Made by a program: the position numbers and the translations under genes
In this document: positions 3,314 to 12,932 of the stretch, in pieces
How the letters are laid out: each line of letters opens with the position of its first letter
Position numbering within the stretch: the stretch's first letter is position 1
Source: an uncultured Planctomycetota bacterium
GTDB taxonomy: Bacteria; Planctomycetota; Planctomycetia; Isosphaerales; Isosphaeraceae
Direction of reading: 5' to 3'
Assembly: GCA_963823665.1 (NCBI GenBank)
Contig: CAWGMQ010000006.1
Coordinates: 640,001-704,000, forward strand
DNA: 64,000 nucleotides
Notes under the pieces: generated by a model
Seen by the model: the letters and a program-made list of their open reading frames with translations, nothing else
Database searches by the model: none
Told to the model about the DNA's origin: nothing

Positions 3314-3376
3314 TTCAAAGGCGTTACGTGCAAAGAACGTAGGCTATCGGTGTGGTGTGCTCATTGCAAGCAGACG
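3314..3376. repeat. 63-bp dispersed repeat, copy A (copy B at 5233-5295)
   Basis: Ungapped hand alignment gives about 54/63 identity. Confidence 0.85.
3353..3368 (+). promoter_or_regulatory. Sigma54-like -24/-12 element
   Basis: TGGTGT-GCTCA-TTGCA, with GG and GC correctly spaced versus consensus TGGCAC-N5-TTGCW; conserved in the duplicate at 5272. Confidence 0.45.
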
Positions 3377-3579
3377 AAAGGGGTGAGCGCTCGGCATTGG
3401 TGCAAAGGCTGTTAGGAACAGGCCGGGAATAACATTGCCGAATTGTCGGCCTGCGCTCCACGAGGGCCGACATTCTCGCATCCGAAGCGACCAGGTCTGA
3501 CGTTTTGGATATAATGCCATGATGGTCGTTGGCTTCGCCGGTCGCGATTCCTTAAGTACAGCATAATCCGGAGTGTGAG

Positions 3580-3672
3580 ATGCCTCCCGAAAAGCAAACC
3601 CAAAATCCAAATTCGAGCAATAGCCAAGGAACTTCGACCGGCAACCTTCTTAGCCTCGCGGCCTGTCGCTAA
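3580..3672 (+). pseudogene. Truncated copy of small Ser/Thr/Gly-rich ORF (30 aa)
   Basis: MPPEKQTQNPNSSNSQGTSTGN matches the first 22 aa of ORF 5573-5767, then diverges and stops. Confidence 0.5.
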
Positions 3673-4015: not shown

Positions 4016-4399
4016 TCAGGTCGCATTGGGAAGTGGCCTCTGCCACGTCTGGTACAAGGCCTGGCGCTCCTGCAACAAGAATTCCTCCTCATCGGCCTTT
4101 GTCCCGGTTAGGCGGCCGAGTTTCCTTGTCAGGTAGAAGTGTCCGCTGCCGGGCCGCCCGCTAGCGCTAACCACCAAAGCGCTGAGCATCGGCCGTCCCC
4201 GATTCACCTCGTCTTCTGAGATCTCTCCGAGCAGGTGTCCGATTTCCTTCACCAGATGCTCTCCGCGAATCGGTAATCCCAGAACGACCGCGAGATGTTG
4301 GTAAGTCGAGAGTCCCCGGAACTCGGCGGCACGCACGAGCTCGGCCAAAACGCGCGTGTATTCCGTAGTTCCCCGGTAGCGATCCTCAACAATCGGCAT
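4016..4399 (-). CDS. Conserved hypothetical protein, 127 aa (TY..LA...LG.IS...PMLSALVV...G.PG.G motif; possible winged-helix-like DNA-binding domain)
   Basis: GGAGGG RBS, protein-like composition, and a motif pattern recalled from small proteins near restriction/HNH genes. Confidence 0.65.
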   Translation of the reverse strand: MPIVEDRYRGTTEYTRVLAELVRAAEFRGLSTYQHLAVVLGLPIRGEHLVKEIGHLLGEISEDEVNRGRPMLSALVVSASGRPGSGHFYLTRKLGRLTGTKADEEEFLLQERQALYQTWQRPLPNAT

Positions 4400-4814: not shown

Positions 4815-5219
4815 ATTGGCTCCGCCTACCCCTTGGTCTCATACATGGCGGCATCCCAACTGTCGGTCCCCTGCACGGCCGTGCCTCGTCGCATGCGTTT
4901 GGGCGGTGCCAGGCGTCCGCCTCCGGTTCGAGAACGTTGTCGCTCCCTTGCTTGGCCTCGACTACGAATCAGGCGCGCTTGTAAAGATCGATCCGCTTGA
5001 CTGTGGTGGACCCATCGGGATTGGGGAACGGCACTGCGCGCCGAACACGTAAGCGTTGTTCTCGTCGTCTGGCCTCGATAGGTCGGGTCGGGCGACTGCG
5101 AGCAGGTCGCATAGCTCGTTCAAAAACATCGAATAGTTTGCTCGCTCCGCCGCGCCCGAGGCCTCCCATCGCCGGAAGCACTCGTCCATCGCGGGCGGAA
5201 CAGCGGTCGGATCAGCCAC
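4815..5219 (-). pseudogene. 5' remnant of an MmeI-like (type IIL/IIG) restriction-modification enzyme
   Basis: RWEASGAAERANYSMFLNELCDLL...NAYVF / RAVPFPNPDGSTTVKRIDLYKRA*FVVEAKQGS / RRGTAVQGTDSWDAAM, read across frameshifts and stops. Confidence 0.8.
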
Positions 5220-5232
5220 GGCACCTCGTAAC

Positions 5233-5295
5233 TTCGAAGAGGTTACGTGTACAGAACGTAGCCTATCGGCGTGGTGTGCTCAATGCAAGCAGATG
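5233..5295. repeat. 63-bp dispersed repeat, copy B, containing sigma54-like TGGTGT-N5-ATGCA at 5272-5287
   Basis: Hand alignment to 3314-3376. Confidence 0.85.
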
Positions 5296-5572
5296 GCGTG
5301 AGGCCGCGGCGCCTGCGCGATTATCGGACCTCCGGTAGGAGAGATCAGTCCGACGGACAATTGGCGCCGGAGGTGGTGCCCGCGTCGATCTGAGTCGCCG
5401 CTTATCCAATTTCGACTCCGGCCATACAACATAACAGCTCCTTTGGAAACGGATTACTCTGATTGCGTCACATGGAATCCTCACATCCGCGGCGACGCGG
5501 TTTTGCGTTTCGGATATAATATCAGCACAGTCCTCGGCGATTCCTTACGTGCTGCATTATCAGAGGTGCGAG

Positions 5573-5767
5573 ATGCCTTCCGAAAACCAAACCCAGAATC
5601 CAAATTCGAGCACCAGCCAAGGAACTTCGACCGGAAACTCGGCTTCCACCACTACCACCTCGTCCCAGGGGCTGATCGGTCAGGCGGGTGTCGCCCCGAG
5701 TGGCACCGTGGAAAGAAGCGGGACGTATTCCGGGACCACCGGCCAGAGCGGTAGGACGAGCCGCTAA
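5573..5767 (+). CDS. Small Ser/Thr/Gly/Gln-rich hypothetical protein (64 aa)
   Basis: GAGGTG RBS before ATG; N-terminus conserved in paralogue at 3580. Confidence 0.5.
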   Translation: MPSENQTQNPNSSTSQGTSTGNSASTTTTSSQGLIGQAGVAPSGTVERSGTYSGTTGQSGRTSR

Positions 5768-6243
5768 CGGTGAAGGATTGAGCCAAGCAGCACGAGCAGG
5801 CCCATGATGAACGCCAGAGTCGATCGCGTGAGCAATCGGGCTTTCCAAGTCGTGAGGCTCCTCATCCCAAGAATAGCGACGTGATACGACGCCGCGGTCA
5901 CGCTTTCAACTTGGTGTTTGGCTGGCTTGGAGTTGAGCTCGGCAACGCTCAACAGCTCGCGCGGGCTCATAGGAATCGAACTTTTTTGCGGCGTCCGTAT
6001 CGTGATCGCGGTGAACAATGCCACGCAAAAGAGGGCAAGCCCAACCACTGCGAGCCAGGGGCGCTCGAAACTGATCAGTTTGGCTGCGACGGCTGCCAAA
6101 ATAGCCCCCCCGACAGTGGCCATGAATCGGAGGTGTTCGTCGGCTTTCTTGTCCAGGCCTTCTGAGATACTTATCATCAAGTAGTATTGTTTTTCAGCGA
6201 ATGCCGATACTATGCCGTAAACTTCTTCCTGGCCCGTGGGCAC
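5764..6243 (-). CDS. Three-TM membrane protein (Pycsar/SLATT effector-like layout); may extend to ATG 6360 through an in-frame TGA at 6259-6261
   Basis: LDKKAD followed by two TMs, a soluble loop and WKARLL + C-terminal TM. Upstream ORF 6259-6468 is in the same frame. Confidence 0.55.
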   Translation of the reverse strand: MPTGQEEVYGIVSAFAEKQYYLMISISEGLDKKADEHLRFMATVGGAILAAVAAKLISFERPWLAVVGLALFCVALFTAITIRTPQKSSIPMSPRELLSVAELNSKPAKHQVESVTAASYHVAILGMRSLTTWKARLLTRSTLAFIMGLLVLLGSILHR

Positions 6244-6549: not shown

Positions 6550-6783
6550 TCACGTGGGGTCGGGACCCAGGAACTTCGGCCCGTTGAAATGGATCATGTG
6601 GTCCGGCGACTCAGCGATCCAGACTTCGGTTTCCCAAGCGATGTCGGCAGCGTATTTACGAAAATCGCTCATCGTGAGGAACGCCGTCACGTACACGCCC
6701 TGAGCCTGGCACTGGCCCAGGAATGACTCGATTTCCCGATGTCTTTTGGGTGAAACCGGCCCGTGCGATGTAACCGCCTCTAA
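6550..6783 (-). pseudogene. C-terminal remnant of a BsuBI/PstI-family restriction endonuclease
   Basis: [14 protein letters not shown]...YVTAF...[34 protein letters not shown] is the family C-terminal signature; the N-terminal part is absent. Confidence 0.88.
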
Positions 6784-8323
6784 TCCCCAATACTTCCAGC
6801 ACGATCCGTTCAATCGCTGCCGGTTGATGGCCACCCAGCTTCTTCATCCGGCCGCCGATACCCGCAACTCGTTCGAGGGCGGGGAATCTGATCGACCTGA
6901 CGTCGGTCGCATTGACCTGAGTATTGCCGCTGATGACACGGAAATATCTGTCGAGCAGAGCCGAATTGAACAACGCCGTCAGGCCGTAGGTCTCTTCGGC
7001 CGTCAACTCGCGATCCGCGTGATAGACGTAGTTCAGATGATTCTCAAGCGCAAGATACGGCCGCGATTCCTCGGCGCGGAGCAACCAGCTTGCGGTCAGT
7101 CGTCGCCGTTCCTCCTTCGCGCTGAAGCGGCGCAGCAACACGTAGTTCCGCGTCGGCACCAGATGCTTTCGCGACGCTTCGCACACGCGAAATGCCGTCG
7201 GCTTACCGCGCCGCTCGAGCGGCCACACAGTTTCAAATGGCCGCACGTTGTGAGGCTCAAGCAGAGGCGCGGATCCTTCGTCGTCCGGCTTCACTAACAG
7301 AAACTCCTCAGCTCGAAATAGTACCACCGGTCCGGTCGACACCTGCAATCCTAGATCGGCAAACCGATCCGGCCATGATTCGACCGCGTCGACGACAGCG
7401 GCATCTTGAACTGTCGCCGGGATGCGTAGAATCATGTCGCCGGAGCTATCGTCCAGAACCTTGGCAGACGGCAGAGTCAGCTCCTCCAGCTTGGCCGGTA
7501 TATCGCGGCCCAAGCACGTCGTGATCGTCGTTGATGGAGCCGCCACCCCTGACCGCTGCGTGTGGGTAATCACGCTCTCCTGAAGGACGTTGTCAAAAGT
7601 GCTGCGCCGGCATTCAAAGAGGTGAACATGACGCAACGACACGCGCGAGAAGAACCACCGCCTGAAGTTCTTGAAATAAAGCCCGCTGCAGAAGCTTCGC
7701 GGCGTGATGGCCACCATCTCGCCGTTCACTCGCAGCAGTTCAGCCGCCCGAGCCATGAACAGCATGTAGATGTTGCTCTGACCTTGAAAAACGTCCTCCA
7801 TCGCGAGGGCATGAGCCGAACCAACGCCGACCTTGAAGTAAGGTGGATTCAGAATTGCAGCGTCAAATGGTTCCAGAGCTTCGTCGTCATCGAAAAGCTT
7901 ACGCTGCGCTCGCCGTACGCGCGTGCTCAAGATGAAATCTTGCCCATGTATCGTGTAACGCAGCTCGTGCCCGGCGCCCTCAAGAACTTCGCGGCAGTGC
8001 CGCATGTTTTCTTCGAGCAGCGGTAGCAGCGCTGCATCATCTTCGTACAGAACGATCTCGATAAGGCGAGGCGAGCGGAGTGTGAGCACCCGGTCGCAGA
8101 CCGCTGTCGCCAGTGAGCCAACTCCGGCTCCTGCATCCAGCAGTCTGAGGCGGTCGGGAATTCGCGTAAAGAGACCTGCCATGAAGGCGCAGATGCTCGG
8201 CGGTGTAAAGACCTGCCCCTTCTCCTTACGTGCATCTGCCGGCGTCGCGGCTTCGTGGCGCTGTTGAAGCTTCGCCGAATAGCTCAACAGGCTGTGCTGT
8301 GATGTTTGTTTTGCTAACTTCAT
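6656..8323 (-). CDS. N6-adenine DNA methyltransferase, BsuBI/PstI (Eco57I-domain) type; last ~43 codons run out of frame over the REase remnant
   Basis: [15 protein letters not shown] (motif I), ILNPPY (motif IV), [43 protein letters not shown]. Confidence 0.92.
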
Positions 8324-8708: not shown

Positions 8709-11700
8709 ATGGAACCCACGCTCCAAAACTTGATCAACCGGCTGAACGATCTCTCCGAGCAGTTCAACGAGCTGCGGGAGGGGATCGGCATGGCGATCGA
8801 TGGTGCTACGAGAGACCCCGAGATGGCGCTCATCCGGTCCCGCAAGGTGCTGGAGTACGTCGTCCGGGACGTGTTCCAGCGCAGGGTGCAGGAGCCGCCC
8901 GGCACTCGGCCCCTCGAGAGCCTGATCCAGCGGCTCGTCAAGGACGGCTACTTGCCGCCCAGACTCGAAGCCTACACGGAGACGATCCGTAAGCTGGGCA
9001 ACGTCGGGGCGCACCAGTTCGGTCAGAAGATCAGGGCGGCGGATGTATACCAGTCGCTCACGCAACTGATGCCGATCCTCGAATGGTTCTTCGAGGTCGA
9101 GCGCCCCGAAGCCGGCGTGAGACTCGACCTGCCGGACGAAATACGTTTCACGGAGACCGCCCCCAATCAGCCCGGCGGCGATCGGGCGAGCAAAAAACAG
9201 AACGCCGTGCTGCCGAAAGGGCTCCGCTCGTTCGACGCGAGCGACAGTGCCTTCTTCCTGCAACTGCTCCCCGGACCACGCGATCAGGACGGCCTGCCTG
9301 AAAGCATCCGCTTCTGGAAGCACCGCATCGAGGCGACCGACGATCCGTCATTCACGGTGGGTGTGATCTATGGCCCCAGCGGGTGCGGCAAGTCGTCGCT
9401 GGTCAAGGCTGGTCTTCTGCCCCGGCTCGCCAAGCGGATCACCTCCGTGTACGTCGAGGCGACCCCCGACGAGACTGAGACCCGGCTCCTCAATGGGCTC
9501 GGGAGAAAACTCGCCAGCTTGCCGGCGGATCTGGATCTGAGGGAGACCATCAGCGCAATCCGGCAGGGGCAAGGACTACGTGCCGATCAGAAGGTCGTCA
9601 TGGTCATCGACCAGTTCGAGCAGTGGCTCCACGCCAACCGGCACAAACAGGACACCGGACTGGCCCAGGCCCTGCGCCAGTGCGACGGCGAGCGCGTCCA
9701 GTGCGTCGTCATGGTGCGCGATGACTTCTGGATGGCCCTGACCCGATTCATGAGCGAGCTGGGAATCGAGCTTCATCAGGGACGTAATGCCGCCTCCGTC
9801 GATCTCTTCGACCTCATCCATGCCCGCCACGTGCTCGCAGCCTTCGGACGATCTTATGGACGATTGCCCGAAAGTCCGGAATCTCCGACCGGCGATCAGG
9901 AAACCTTCCTCGCCGATGCCGTCGAAGGGCTTTCGCAGGACGGCCGGGTGATCTCGATCCGCCTGGCGTTGTTCGCCGAGATGGTCAAGGGCAAGGCCTG
10001 GACACCCGCAACGCTCAAGGCGGTCGGGGGAACCGAGGGCGTCGGCGTGACATTTCTCGAAGAGACCTTCGGCTCAGCCACGCTGCGGTCGCATCAGAAG
10101 GCGGCTCAGGCGGTGTTGAAAGCCCTTTTGCCCGGCAGCGGCACGGACATCAAAGGACACATGCGGTCGCACGATGAACTTCGTGAGGCGTCAGGGTGCG
10201 CCGAACGTCCCAGGGAGTTCGACGACCTGCTGCGGATTCTGGATAGCGAGCTCCGGCTGATCACGCCGACGGATCCCGAAGGCTCAGTCGCCGGGGAACA
10301 ACCCGCTAAACCACAAGGAGTGCGTTTTTTTCAGTTGACCCACGATTATCTGGTCCACTCCTTGCGGCACTGGCTGACACGCAAGCAGCGGGAAACACGG
10401 AAAGGGCGTGCGGAGCTGCGGCTGGCAGAACGATCAGCAGTGTGGAGCGCCAAGCCCGAAAACCGCCATCTACCGTCTGCCCTCGAATGGGCAAACATCC
10501 GCTTGCTGACGACGACGAAGGACTGGTCAGAGCTGCAGACGAACATGATGAGGCGGGCGGGCCGGGTTCACGTTCTGCGGGGTCTGGGGCTAGCAGTACT
10601 GATCGCGTTGGTCACCTGGGCCGGTGTCGAGGGATACGGGACCGTGCGTGCCTCATCACTCGTCGAGTCGCTCAAGACCGCCAGCACCGCGGATGTGGAA
10701 CCGATCATCAAGCACCTTTCAGCGTACCGCCGCTGGGCCAAGGCTCCGCTGGTCCGCTTGCTGGGGGAATCGGAAAAAACCAGCCGCGAGCACCTCCACG
10801 CCAGTCTCGCCCTACTTCCGCTGGACGCAAGTCAGGGCGAGTACCTTTACGATCGCCTGCTCAACTCCAACCCGATCGAATTGCCGGTGATCTGGAAGCT
10901 GATACAAGATAACCATCAAGCTCCGGTTGATCGGCTCTGGAAAGTTCTGGACGACCCGAAAGCGGACAGAGACCAACGGTTCCGATCGGCGTGTGCGCTG
11001 GCGTTTGTCGACGCGGCGGCAGACAAAAAACGCTGGGATGCTGTCTCTGGCTTCGTCACCGATCGGCTGATGGAGGCGGTTCTCAAGAACCCCAGCCATT
11101 ACTCATCTCTGATCAAAACCCTGCAACCCGTGTGCGATCGGCTAATGGCTCCGCTGTCTCGAACCTCTCGAGACCAGGGCAAGCTGGAGTCCGAACGGTC
11201 CCTGGCGACGAGCATCCTGTCCGACTACGCCGCCGAGCGGCCGGACGTGCTGGCCGACCTGCTCATGGACGCCACTGGACCCCAGTTTGCCATGCTCTTC
11301 CCGAAGGTCCAAGCCGTGGCCTCGCAGGCTCTGACGGTCCTCGAGTCCGAGGTCGCCAGAAAGCCGACGCCCGAGGCCACGGAAGACGACAAGGATAAGG
11401 TTGCCCAGCGCCAGGCGCGGGCGGCGGTGGCGCTGGTGCGGCTAGGTCGAACCGAAAGGATCTGGCCTCTGCTGCGGCACAGCGCGGACCCCCGGCTCCG
11501 AAGTTTCATCGTCAACTGGCTCGCCCCCCTCGGTGCCGACCCGAAGCTGATCGTCGCCGAGTTCGACCGACTGCATTCACTCCCCATCCGAAAAATGGAC
11601 CGGGTTGCCAGCGCCATGGACGGAATCCTCTTCCACCCCGAGACGTCGATAAGGCGGGCGCTGATCCTGGCGGTGGCGGCGTACGGCACGGACGGACTGT

Positions 11701-12698
11701 CTCCCGGCGAGCGTGAGCCTCTGGTCGGCAAGCTGCTGGATCTCTATCGCAACGACCCTGACGCTGGAATCCACGGGGCGGCGGAGTGGGCGCTCCGGCA
11801 GTGGAGGAACGACGAGAAACTGAAGGCGATCGACACCGAGCTATCGAAACTCAAGGACCGGGGCGAGCGTCGCTGGCTCGTGAACAGCCAGGGGCAGACG
11901 TTCGCCGTGATCGAGGGTCCGGTGGAGTTCCTCATGGGGTCGCCGCCCGCGGAGCCGGAGCATGACAGCGACGAAACAACACACCGTGTGGTCATTCCCC
12001 GCGCCTTTGCCATCGCCGCCAAAGAGGTCTCCAAGGAACAGTGGCAGGCATTCGCGAAGCAGAATCCCGATTGGGATATTGATGCAGCGAGTGTGAATAA
12101 ATTCAGCCCCGACCCGAACGGCCCGATGATAGGGTTTTCCTGGTATACCGCCGCTGCCTTCTGCAACTGGCTCAGCGAGCAGGAGGGGTTGCCGAAGGAA
12201 CAGTGGTGCTACCTTCCCGCCGAAAACGGCAACTACACGACGGGGATGACGATCCCCGCCGACGTTCTCCTGCGCAAGGGCTATCGCCTTCCGACCGAGG
12301 CGGAGTGGGAATTTGCATGCAGGTCAGGCACGACGACGAGTCGCTACTACGGTCTCTCGCTCGAATTGCTCGACGGGTATGCTCGGTACCAGCTTAACAG
12401 CAAGGGGCACGCCTGGACGTGCGGGAGTCTCCGACCGAATGACTTTGGGTTGTTCGACATGCTGGGGAACATGTACGAATGGGTGCAAGACGAAGAGTAC
12501 GCGTACAAGGCAGGCCAGGCTGATGCTACACTAGATTCTATAAAGAATATTTCACATGTAAATGACACCAATCGTGTGCTTCGGGGCGGGGCGTTCGTCT
12601 ATGAATCGTCGTTCGTCCGCGCAGCGCACCGTCCCGGGAACCTGCCGGTGATCCGTAGCGCGAATTACGGCTTCCGCCCCGCCAGGACTTACCCCTGA
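8709..12698 (+). CDS. DUF4145 (HEPN-like) - STAND NTPase (nSTAND1-like) - TM - helical repeats - FGE-sulfatase/C-type lectin fold protein, 1329 aa
   Basis: N-terminal SRKVLE...IRKLGNVGAH; PKGLRSF; Walker A GPSGCGKSS; Walker B VMVIDQFEQ; QLTHDYLV; TM GLGLAVLIALVTWAGV; C-terminal RLPTEAEWEFACR, PNDFGLFDMLGNMYEW, RVLRGG, GFRPARTYP. Confidence 0.9.
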   Translation: MEPTLQNLINRLNDLSEQFNELREGIGMAIDGATRDPEMALIRSRKVLEYVVRDVFQRRVQEPPGTRPLESLIQRLVKDGYLPPRLEAYTETIRKLGNVGAHQFGQKIRAADVYQSLTQLMPILEWFFEVERPEAGVRLDLPDEIRFTETAPNQPGGDRASKKQNAVLPKGLRSFDASDSAFFLQLLPGPRDQDGLPESIRFWKHRIEATDDPSFTVGVIYGPSGCGKSSLVKAGLLPRLAKRITSVYVEATPDETETRLLNGLGRKLASLPADLDLRETISAIRQGQGLRADQKVVMVIDQFEQWLHANRHKQDTGLAQALRQCDGERVQCVVMVRDDFWMALTRFMSELGIELHQGRNAASVDLFDLIHARHVLAAFGRSYGRLPESPESPTGDQETFLADAVEGLSQDGRVISIRLALFAEMVKGKAWTPATLKAVGGTEGVGVTFLEETFGSATLRSHQKAAQAVLKALLPGSGTDIKGHMRSHDELREASGCAERPREFDDLLRILDSELRLITPTDPEGSVAGEQPAKPQGVRFFQLTHDYLVHSLRHWLTRKQRETRKGRAELRLAERSAVWSAKPENRHLPSALEWANIRLLTTTKDWSELQTNMMRRAGRVHVLRGLGLAVLIALVTWAGVEGYGTVRASSLVESLKTASTADVEPIIKHLSAYRRWAKAPLVRLLGESEKTSREHLHASLALLPLDASQGEYLYDRLLNSNPIELPVIWKLIQDNHQAPVDRLWKVLDDPKADRDQRFRSACALAFVDAAADKKRWDAVSGFVTDRLMEAVLKNPSHYSSLIKTLQPVCDRLMAPLSRTSRDQGKLESERSLATSILSDYAAERPDVLADLLMDATGPQFAMLFPKVQAVASQALTVLESEVARKPTPEATEDDKDKVAQRQARAAVALVRLGRTERIWPLLRHSADPRLRSFIVNWLAPLGADPKLIVAEFDRLHSLPIRKMDRVASAMDGILFHPETSIRRALILAVAAYGTDGLSPGEREPLVGKLLDLYRNDPDAGIHGAAEWALRQWRNDEKLKAIDTELSKLKDRGERRWLVNSQGQTFAVIEGPVEFLMGSPPAEPEHDSDETTHRVVIPRAFAIAAKEVSKEQWQAFAKQNPDWDIDAASVNKFSPDPNGPMIGFSWYTAAAFCNWLSEQEGLPKEQWCYLPAENGNYTTGMTIPADVLLRKGYRLPTEAEWEFACRSGTTTSRYYGLSLELLDGYARYQLNSKGHAWTCGSLRPNDFGLFDMLGNMYEWVQDEEYAYKAGQADATLDSIKNISHVNDTNRVLRGGAFVYESSFVRAAHRPGNLPVIRSANYGFRPARTYP

Positions 12699-12704
12699 GA
12701 AGTT

Positions 12705-12932
12705 CTACCACTTTACTACTGCCACCGGACCAGCCCAGGTCACGAGCAGAGAATGTGGGTTGTGGGAGACGACGGTGCAAGAAATCTTGAGCGGATGGAG
12801 GACAACCACTTTGACAGTGCCGCCAGTCAGGAGGGCTCCGAGCACGTGGCCAGCTTCGTGGACGGCCATCATGCCCAGCCAAGCGAGCGGAACGGCCGAG
12901 CCGATCAGGACAAACTGGTCAGCTCGCCGCAT
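12705..12932 (-). pseudogene. N-terminal fragment of an M50-like (HExxH) membrane metallopeptidase
   Basis: VHEAGH within a hydrophobic segment, then WAGP and an abrupt stop against the 3' flank of the STAND gene. Confidence 0.7.

Follow-up and report, generated by a model that had tools for sequence, protein, structure and literature searches.

What might a large planctomycete protein with a putative effector domain at its N-terminus and a lectin-like domain at its C-terminus detect, and what would it do in response? The question is raised by a 64,000-nucleotide stretch of DNA (hereafter the window) from an uncultured Planctomycetota bacterium of the family Isosphaeraceae (assembly GCA_963823665.1, contig CAWGMQ010000006.1, positions 640,001 to 704,000), in which positions 8709–12698 of the forward strand hold a receptor gene (P0001) of 1329 amino acids. 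The open reading frame (ORF) is real and intact: it runs as one open frame, and some 100 homologues have the same N-terminal architecture. As far as its sequence tells, the gene is a new effector variant of the predicted effector-STAND-FGS receptor class, with a sensor loop derived from a diversity-generating retroelement (DGR). On balance, we consider it probable that the product is a single-pass inner-membrane conflict receptor with a predicted ribonuclease (RNase) output.

From the N-terminus onwards the protein consists of a DUF4145/HEPN domain, an nSTAND1 module, a probable single transmembrane (TM) helix, a HEAT-like solenoid and an FGE-fold C-type-lectin (CLec) domain, all encoded, like the features described with them below, on the forward strand. 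Pfam places DUF4145 at residues 36–113 (31.5 bits, gathering cut-off 23.1), nSTAND1 at residues 210–582 (80.3 bits, cut-off 27.1) and FGE-sulfatase at residues 1073–1326 (126.7 bits, cut-off 23.3). The receptor was modelled with AlphaFold2 (AF2) in two parts, residues 1–660 (predicted local distance difference test, pLDDT, 82) and 598–1329 (pLDDT 91), and both models agree with the Pfam placement. Structural matches were scored as Z and root-mean-square deviation (rmsd) (VIA), and Foldseek was also used.

The candidate effector is the DUF4145/HEPN domain (aa 1–135, 8709–9113), predicted to act as an RNase. Its AF2 model (residues 14–136) matches the HEPN structure 2hsb with Z 13.2 and rmsd 2.8, 118 of 126 residues being aligned, and the N-terminus of Roquin with Z 11.6; because Z is here near the caution level for helical bundles, the fold match is counted jointly with the Pfam hit. 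Two motifs mark the domain. The first, E49-x3-R53 (8853–8867), has the Ex3[KR] form defined for HEPN domains (PMC3710099), with E49 found in 115 and R53 in 116 of 120 homologues. The second, R94-x2-G97-N98-x3-H102 (Rx7H; 8988–9014), is the putative active-site motif, to which both its conservation and a spacing like that of the RNase RAZR point. Among the top 120 homologues, picked by score, it is retained in all 110 that lack a TIR domain (101/101 plain, 9/9 kinase-bearing) and in 0/10 with a TIR domain fused upstream; it is also lost in 8/8 TIR-adjacent copies and in 4/4 of a further locus set, sets that may overlap. Compared with the query, the TIR group has an identity of 0.20 across the motif window vs 0.53 outside it, the other homologues standing at 0.69 and 0.70, and such erosion is expected if catalysis is dispensable once a second effector has been added. 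The motif's R, G, N and H never vary in 59/59 aligned rows, and further afield 142 of 146 distant N-domain representatives retain it, all 142 reading [RK]xxGN. Neither the N-domain sequence nor its profile gave a significant sequence match in the PDB, and RAZR was not reached. A complex prediction for the HEPN homodimer scored 0.00, was run without controls and is not used as evidence.

A flexible linker (aa 142–170, 9132–9218; pLDDT below 50, weak conservation) leads from the HEPN domain into the nSTAND1 NTPase module (aa ~165–562, 9201–10394), which is delimited by Pfam, conservation and fold. Within it lie Walker A (9372–9398) and Walker B (9609–9620), each pattern present in 119 of the top 120 homologues with the query counted, and an invariant H545-D546 (10341–10346). 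In model comparison, residues 165–562 resemble archaeal STAND/ORC ATPases and the NB-ARC of plant NLRs. Downstream, hydropathy makes it probable that the segment 622–640 (10572–10628) spans the membrane once, N-in/C-out. In the query this segment has a mean Kyte–Doolittle (KD) value of 2.02 and a run of 16 uncharged residues; among the 119 of 120 homologues that could be anchored, the equivalent segment reaches KD ≥1.6 in 103, has an uncharged run of at least 15 in 115 and outranks every other window of its protein in hydrophobicity in 115, with lysine and arginine commoner before it than after (4.3 vs 2.6). Both AF2 models set it within a continuous helix of about 50 residues (608–657). The region that follows (aa ~650–1045, 10656–11843) is modelled as wholly helical and read as a HEAT-like alpha-solenoid, its likeness to HEAT/ARM solenoids being weak (Z ≤9.3); close homologues carry BTRD1/TPR inserts here.

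The proposed sensor is the CLec domain (aa ~1053–1329, 11865–12695), the best structural match of which is the DGR variable protein TvpA (Z 30.9, rmsd 2.4, 256 residues aligned; also the top Foldseek match). An active formylglycine enzyme (FGE/PvdO/EgtB) was considered and rejected: residues 1289–1329, the C-terminal stretch in which we take the catalytic cysteine pair of FGE to lie, contain no cysteine, and the NCBIfam matches are all far below cut-off. The CLec domain reads as non-enzymatic. Its end holds a DGR-type variable region (VR; aa 1289–1327, 12573–12689), recognised by ungapped alignment to the template repeats (TRs) of relatives. Set without gaps against the TR of the related locus L214, it departs from 14 of 27 TR adenines and from 14 of 92 other bases, 10 of the 14 non-adenine differences being non-synonymous. 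Across 7/7 TRs of relatives, the VR differs at 48–56% of adenines vs 15–19% of other bases; relaxed selection on the binding residues may contribute to the adenine excess. In 56 aligned proteins, the columns at codons reading AAC in the TR belong to the most variable. Just past the stop codon, a pyrimidine-rich element (12703–12720), degenerate forms of which occur in relatives' DGR targets, may be akin to the initiation of mutagenic homing (IMH) sequence. By these alignments, the last 117 coding bases descend from a DGR variable region.

The first-pass annotation of this DNA had missed the variable region. Its list of domains otherwise stands: the HEPN fold of the N-terminus and the conservation of R and H (with N), nSTAND1 with its Walker motifs, the helices between membrane and sensor and the C-terminal CLec/FGE domain are all borne out, one TM helix with an outer sensor is probable, and the N-terminal motifs that it quoted are present, in the exact forms given above.

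Is the sensor still being rewritten? Searches of the own genome by blastn and by pattern gave no cognate TR, and no bAvd over the cut-off and no matching reverse transcriptase (RT) cassette were found, in an assembly that is 91.9% complete and so could lack a cassette. With no matching template in the assembly the receptor copy looks frozen and its VR apparently orphaned; the binding loop is probably no longer diversified and its specificity fixed. The low-depth contigs held no usable variation, the one contig that is identical across the VR (depth 2.9) being too weak to count.

DGRs target the same scaffold elsewhere in the own genome and in relatives. On contig C8 of the own genome (L050:7343–13687) stands a DGR whose target, of kinase-nSTAND1-helical-FGE architecture, is broken up into several frames in the assembly; it further comprises a small accessory ORF distinct from bAvd, an RT and, after it, a TR. 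This TR differs from the VR of the kinase paralogue at 20 of 31 adenines and 0 of 96 other bases, and does not match the receptor at 8709–12698, where the alignment spans 15 nucleotides only. The genome has 22 RT matches, and of five loci inspected C8 alone has a TR/VR pair; at least seven of the RT matches have identical scores on different contigs and are probably copies of one group II intron. In the two closest HEPN-type loci (L114 and L116; ~80% HEPN identity) bAvd directly follows the gene, and in L114 the start of a frame that we read as a DGR RT comes next, at the contig end. A gene of 536–558 aa lies directly upstream in both (L114:466–2139, L116:4384–5991), with a weak CorA-like PADLOC match in one; it is possibly a partner in these two loci and is absent from the window. 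The same type of bAvd occurs in 19 of 120 same-family genomes, including the same-genus G429. Fourteen Avd loci were fetched (L214–L227); a STAND receptor of this type stands directly upstream in 12 and an FGE match alone in two, the 12 receptors comprising 10 with a kinase, one with TIR and a dead HEPN, and one with its N-terminus out of range. Cognate TR/VR pairs in relatives differ mainly at TR adenines in 7/7 cases (for example 13/30 adenines vs 1/95 other bases in L219, and 6/16 vs 0/64 in L223), a contrast inflated by an alignment that scored adenines as neutral. Judging from these loci, receptor-Avd-RT-TR cassettes are common in this bacterial family. No locus was found with an intact-motif HEPN receptor plus a complete DGR cassette in view.

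A search with residues 1–600 returned 7155 matches among 8000 scored, the best 120 of which all contain the N-domain, and about 100 close 90% clusters have the HEPN-nSTAND1 N-terminus in common with the query. By this measure the gene is no one-off and belongs to a family, the named homologues of which are mostly Planctomycetota. The own genome has 82 matches to the query, and the best 30 of the 82 make up 20 scaffold loci whose N-terminus can be seen. A Ser/Thr kinase is found in 19 of these 20 and HEPN in the receptor at 8709–12698 alone, which supports the earlier suggestion of an effector swap in place of the usual kinase. TIR versions are present in relatives, so that on sequence comparison a kinase, TIR or HEPN may occupy one and the same scaffold. 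Each of the 9 kinase+DUF4145 proteins (P0069, P0086, P0090, P0091, P0095, P0103, P0106, P0108, P0117) has the HEPN domain inside the nSTAND1 module, at about query residue 389, with its motif intact, and the same insert is seen in P0110, P0200 and loci L141 and L142. The domain thus occupies two positions on this chassis, N-terminal and within STAND, with the motif intact. Kinase rows are missing from the STAND tree because the insert splits their STAND, and TIR rows are scattered in it; neither this tree nor that of the N-domain is used for the order of events. One locus (L118:10001–16103) holds two receptors in tandem, the first with an intact HEPN and the second, directly behind it, with TIR and a dead HEPN.

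The N-domain itself ranges more widely. Its profile finds 1668 representatives at E ≤0.001, and among the 134 scanned of 146 new representatives it is fused to FGE, WD40, TPR, LRR, Sel1, DUF1080, trypsin, vWA, FHA, kinase, NB-ARC and TIR. A segment of KD ≥1.8 follows HEPN in 66 of the 121 representatives with enough sequence. Proteins without STAND in which HEPN, TM and an outer domain (FGE, WD40, LRR, DUF1080, vWA or trypsin) follow one another resemble receptor kinases with HEPN in place of the kinase (P0127, P0191, P0193, P0236, P0240, P0145, P0157, P0188, P0189 and others). Profile matches in 9 of 121 genomes of the same taxonomic order make the distribution patchy; the phylum-wide protein search, with at most six candidates scored per genome, is no census. 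Besides the receptor, the own genome carries three HEPN copies on other partners: before FGE in split frames (L055:5056–6610), in a split gene (L056:4482–5431) and on a T2SSE-type ATPase (L057:2878–4707).

Receptors of this general kind have been predicted before. Conflict systems composed of an effector or effector-associated domain (EAD), an nSTAND1 STAND and FGS, with interchangeable N-termini and DGR links, were predicted in the available text of Kaur et al., 2021 (PMC8195603). The receptor is like them in its nSTAND1 core with intact Walker A and B, its C-terminal FGS/CLec, its exchangeable effector (TIR, kinase), its several copies per genome and its DGR association. Unlike them, it has a TM helix and a ~400-aa HEAT-like stalk between STAND and FGS, and the effectors that the available text names do not include HEPN/DUF4145; in the source file of Figure 2 of that paper, 0 of 23 'HEPN' strings stand on an nSTAND1-FGS protein. 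In the available parts of Dore et al., 2024 (PMC10907252), clade-5D DGR targets with nSTAND1 or NACHT and CLec, not experimentally characterised, are proposed as antigen sensors. They share with the receptor a STAND and a DGR-diversified CLec, which is periplasmic in some of them; their effectors, unlike its own, are peptidases, TIR or adaptors, the string DUF4145 is absent from the main text and searched supplements, and the receptor has no cognate TR in its assembly. HEPN has been listed among NACHT effectors in the part seen of a preprint (bioRxiv 10.1101/2022.07.19.500537), and FGE-type STAND sensors are noted in the available text of PMC13581612. The receptor is thus not undescribed in the sense of the first-pass annotation: published predictions already cover the effector-STAND-FGS class with its DGR link, and the HEPN version was not found there. 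No HEPN-nSTAND1-TM-CLec protein was found in the literature searched, which includes few subscription papers; the tables of PMC13581612 could hold one.

For the output, a characterised protein to compare is RAZR (PD-T7-4), a DUF4145 RNase that, in the available text, needs R146, H154 and higher-order assembly (Zhang et al., 2026; PMC13017515). The receptor likewise has a DUF4145 HEPN in which H follows R by eight residues, and by analogy activation through assembly is proposed for it; RAZR, unlike the receptor, is small and soluble, bears a zinc finger, assembles on a phage ring and lacks STAND, TM and CLec. The effector-STAND-sensor layout recalls the antiviral Avs and bNACHT proteins, tested members of which, unlike the proposed receptor, sense phage proteins in the cytoplasm via repeat sensors; no PADLOC 2.0 Avs model matched the receptor, which gave only weak PDC-M16A and P-loop matches. 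A cytoplasmic HEPN under an outer sensor, linked through a TM helix, was predicted for membrane-associated bacterial HEPN proteins alongside eukaryotic Ire1 (PMC3710099, section 15). As far as that section describes them, its three membrane-HEPN groups differ from the receptor in architecture and have no STAND, CLec or DGR, and the likeness to Ire1 is taken as an analogy. In planctomycete receptor kinases, the available text of PMC11032199 predicts a periplasmic place for most FGE domains.

Taken together as a conflict receptor, the parts could work as follows. With the predicted topology, CLec and stalk would face the periplasm, where CLec may bind a non-self ligand, either a phage structural or injection protein or a molecule of a neighbouring cell. 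The ligand would cluster receptors or turn the long membrane-crossing helix 608–657, the cytoplasmic STAND modules would exchange nucleotide and oligomerise, and the flexibly linked HEPN domains would pair, forming composite R94/H102 active sites. These sites may then cut cellular RNA, leading to arrest or death of the cell, and the family would draw new specificities from DGR cassettes.

Several points weigh against this scheme. A membrane between the sensor and the nucleotide-binding domain excludes the direct release from auto-inhibition that is known from Avs proteins and NLRs. In profile comparison the N-domain matches best the N-terminal part of type I HsdR, for which we know of no RNase activity. 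The choice of the 120 homologues by score slightly favours motif-bearing rows. The TIR rows form a single clade on the N-domain tree, so the loss of the motif was probably a single event, and two proteins of other architectures (P0217, P0253) combine HEPN and TIR with the motif intact. The likeness to RAZR R146/H154 is one of spacing only, not of sequence alignment, and the motif departs from the canonical Rx4–6H (PMC3710099), with glycine in the place of the usual arginine before N. Nor is the neighbourhood conserved. With 87 of 99 picked flanking ORFs scanned with Pfam and 32 ORFs with PADLOC, 0 of 11 HEPN-intact homologue loci has a type II or IIG restriction-modification (RM) neighbour, and 5 of the 11 show housekeeping or unannotated neighbours only; the other neighbours are Lamassu at ~5.5 kb (one locus), Avd (two), a tandem TIR paralogue (one), an integrase (one) and Uma2 (one).

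Homologues among housekeeping genes, of which there are many, would suit an Ire1-like signalling RNase, which would report an envelope or cell-contact cue, cut selected RNAs and replace the kinase of the planctomycete receptor repertoire. The HEPN subfamily is indeed fused through TM helices to the outer domains of planctomycete kinases (FGE, WD40, DUF1080/3-keto, LRR, Sel1), and fusions with FHA, receiver and STAS domains occur as well; all nine kinase+DUF4145 homologues keep both domains, and stimulus-dependent RNA decay by membrane HEPNs is proposed in section 15 of PMC3710099. We nonetheless hold such a role to be unlikely, since DGR hypermutation of the sensor and interchangeability with TIR are more in keeping with an arms race than with a fixed cue, and a characterised DUF4145 protein, RAZR, is in the text available a broad RNase that brings about abortive infection. 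Improbable to a further degree is that HEPN serves as a non-catalytic homotypic adaptor, similar to an EAD, that pairs the receptor with other HEPN proteins and leaves it as sensor and switch only. The four HEPN copies on different partners in the own genome, the persistence of the domain under TIR without its motif and the glycine that replaces the canonical arginine would all agree with an adaptor, which offers, however, no clear reason to retain the motif residues, invariant as they are in 59/59 rows, when exactly that stretch erodes once TIR is added. The idea that all domains are cytoplasmic, with the hydrophobic helix buried or skimming the membrane in an ordinary intracellular STAND-CLec phage sensor with a HEPN effector, gains from the uncharged run of only 16 residues, from the cytoplasmic prediction for many nSTAND1-FGS targets in the available text of PMC10907252 and from a cis arrangement that fits known STAND activation, but is very improbable given a helix whose hydrophobicity is conserved though its sequence is not, the positive-inside bias, the top hydropathy window in 115/119 homologues and a clear TM helix in 7 of 11 STAND-less HEPN-FGE relatives examined.

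The surroundings of the gene are variable. In one same-genus genome the flanks (1–1246 and 13183 onward) are syntenic and the 12 kb between them consist of unrelated, mostly metabolic genes; the receptor thus sits in a variable interval together with RM debris. The RM genes lie upstream of the receptor in divergent orientation, on the reverse strand: a nearly full-length type II methyltransferase (6656–8323; PADLOC MTase_II, E 5e-113), which runs into what is left of the C-terminus of a type II restriction enzyme (6550–6834; PADLOC REase_II profile 241–314 of 317), and the N-terminal remnant of a type IIG restriction enzyme–methyltransferase (4962–5219; PADLOC profile 4–55 of 1136). The first-pass annotation is thus borne out on the decay of these genes, with the reservation that the methyltransferase is almost whole. 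The defence island it proposed is local only; a conserved one was rejected, as RM neighbours are not kept across homologue loci, and the island is no part of the receptor system. Two further reverse-strand ORFs share the interval, a small membrane ORF (5764–6243) with no Pfam or PADLOC match, the nearest Atlas clusters of which include one in which 33% of members carry PycTM (a lead only), and a 127-aa ORF (4016–4399) that matches nothing in Pfam, PADLOC or NCBIfam and nothing meaningful in the PDB. Two diverged duplicated stretches (3314–3645 and 5233–5638) agree at 87% over 61 nt and 75% over 174 nt, and one of them holds a short Ser/Thr/Gln-rich ORF. Beyond the receptor, 13188–43136 is occupied by repeated RND efflux genes (AcrB-like, HlyD-like and outer-membrane efflux) in several paralogous sets, checked with Pfam to 30497 and by eye for the remainder.

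For the conflict receptor proposed here, three states of one domain, namely intact HEPN, HEPN inside STAND and dead HEPN under TIR, would form a natural series of effector replacement in progress. STAND-CLec receptors have been predicted to be the bacterial counterparts of antigen receptors, and an RNase output would bring a simple readout (RNA cleavage, toxicity) with clean controls (R94A, H102A, Walker A), so that this variant could serve to test DGR-diversified extracytoplasmic sensors and the drive of STAND across a membrane. It is possible, though we regard it as doubtful, that the gene stands for a planctomycete family of adaptive receptor ribonucleases, in which a periplasmic CLec, rewritten by DGRs much as an antibody loop is, would be wired via TM and STAND to a cytoplasmic HEPN RNase, outputs would be exchangeable, recognition would take place outside the cytoplasm and orphan copies would amount to a form of immune memory. 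If this were true, the outputs on the chassis would be a kinase, an RNase, a kinase plus an in-STAND RNase, and TIR over a dead HEPN; recognition would come before or during phage entry or on contact with non-kin cells, and orphan copies like the receptor at 8709–12698 would be fixed, selected specificities.

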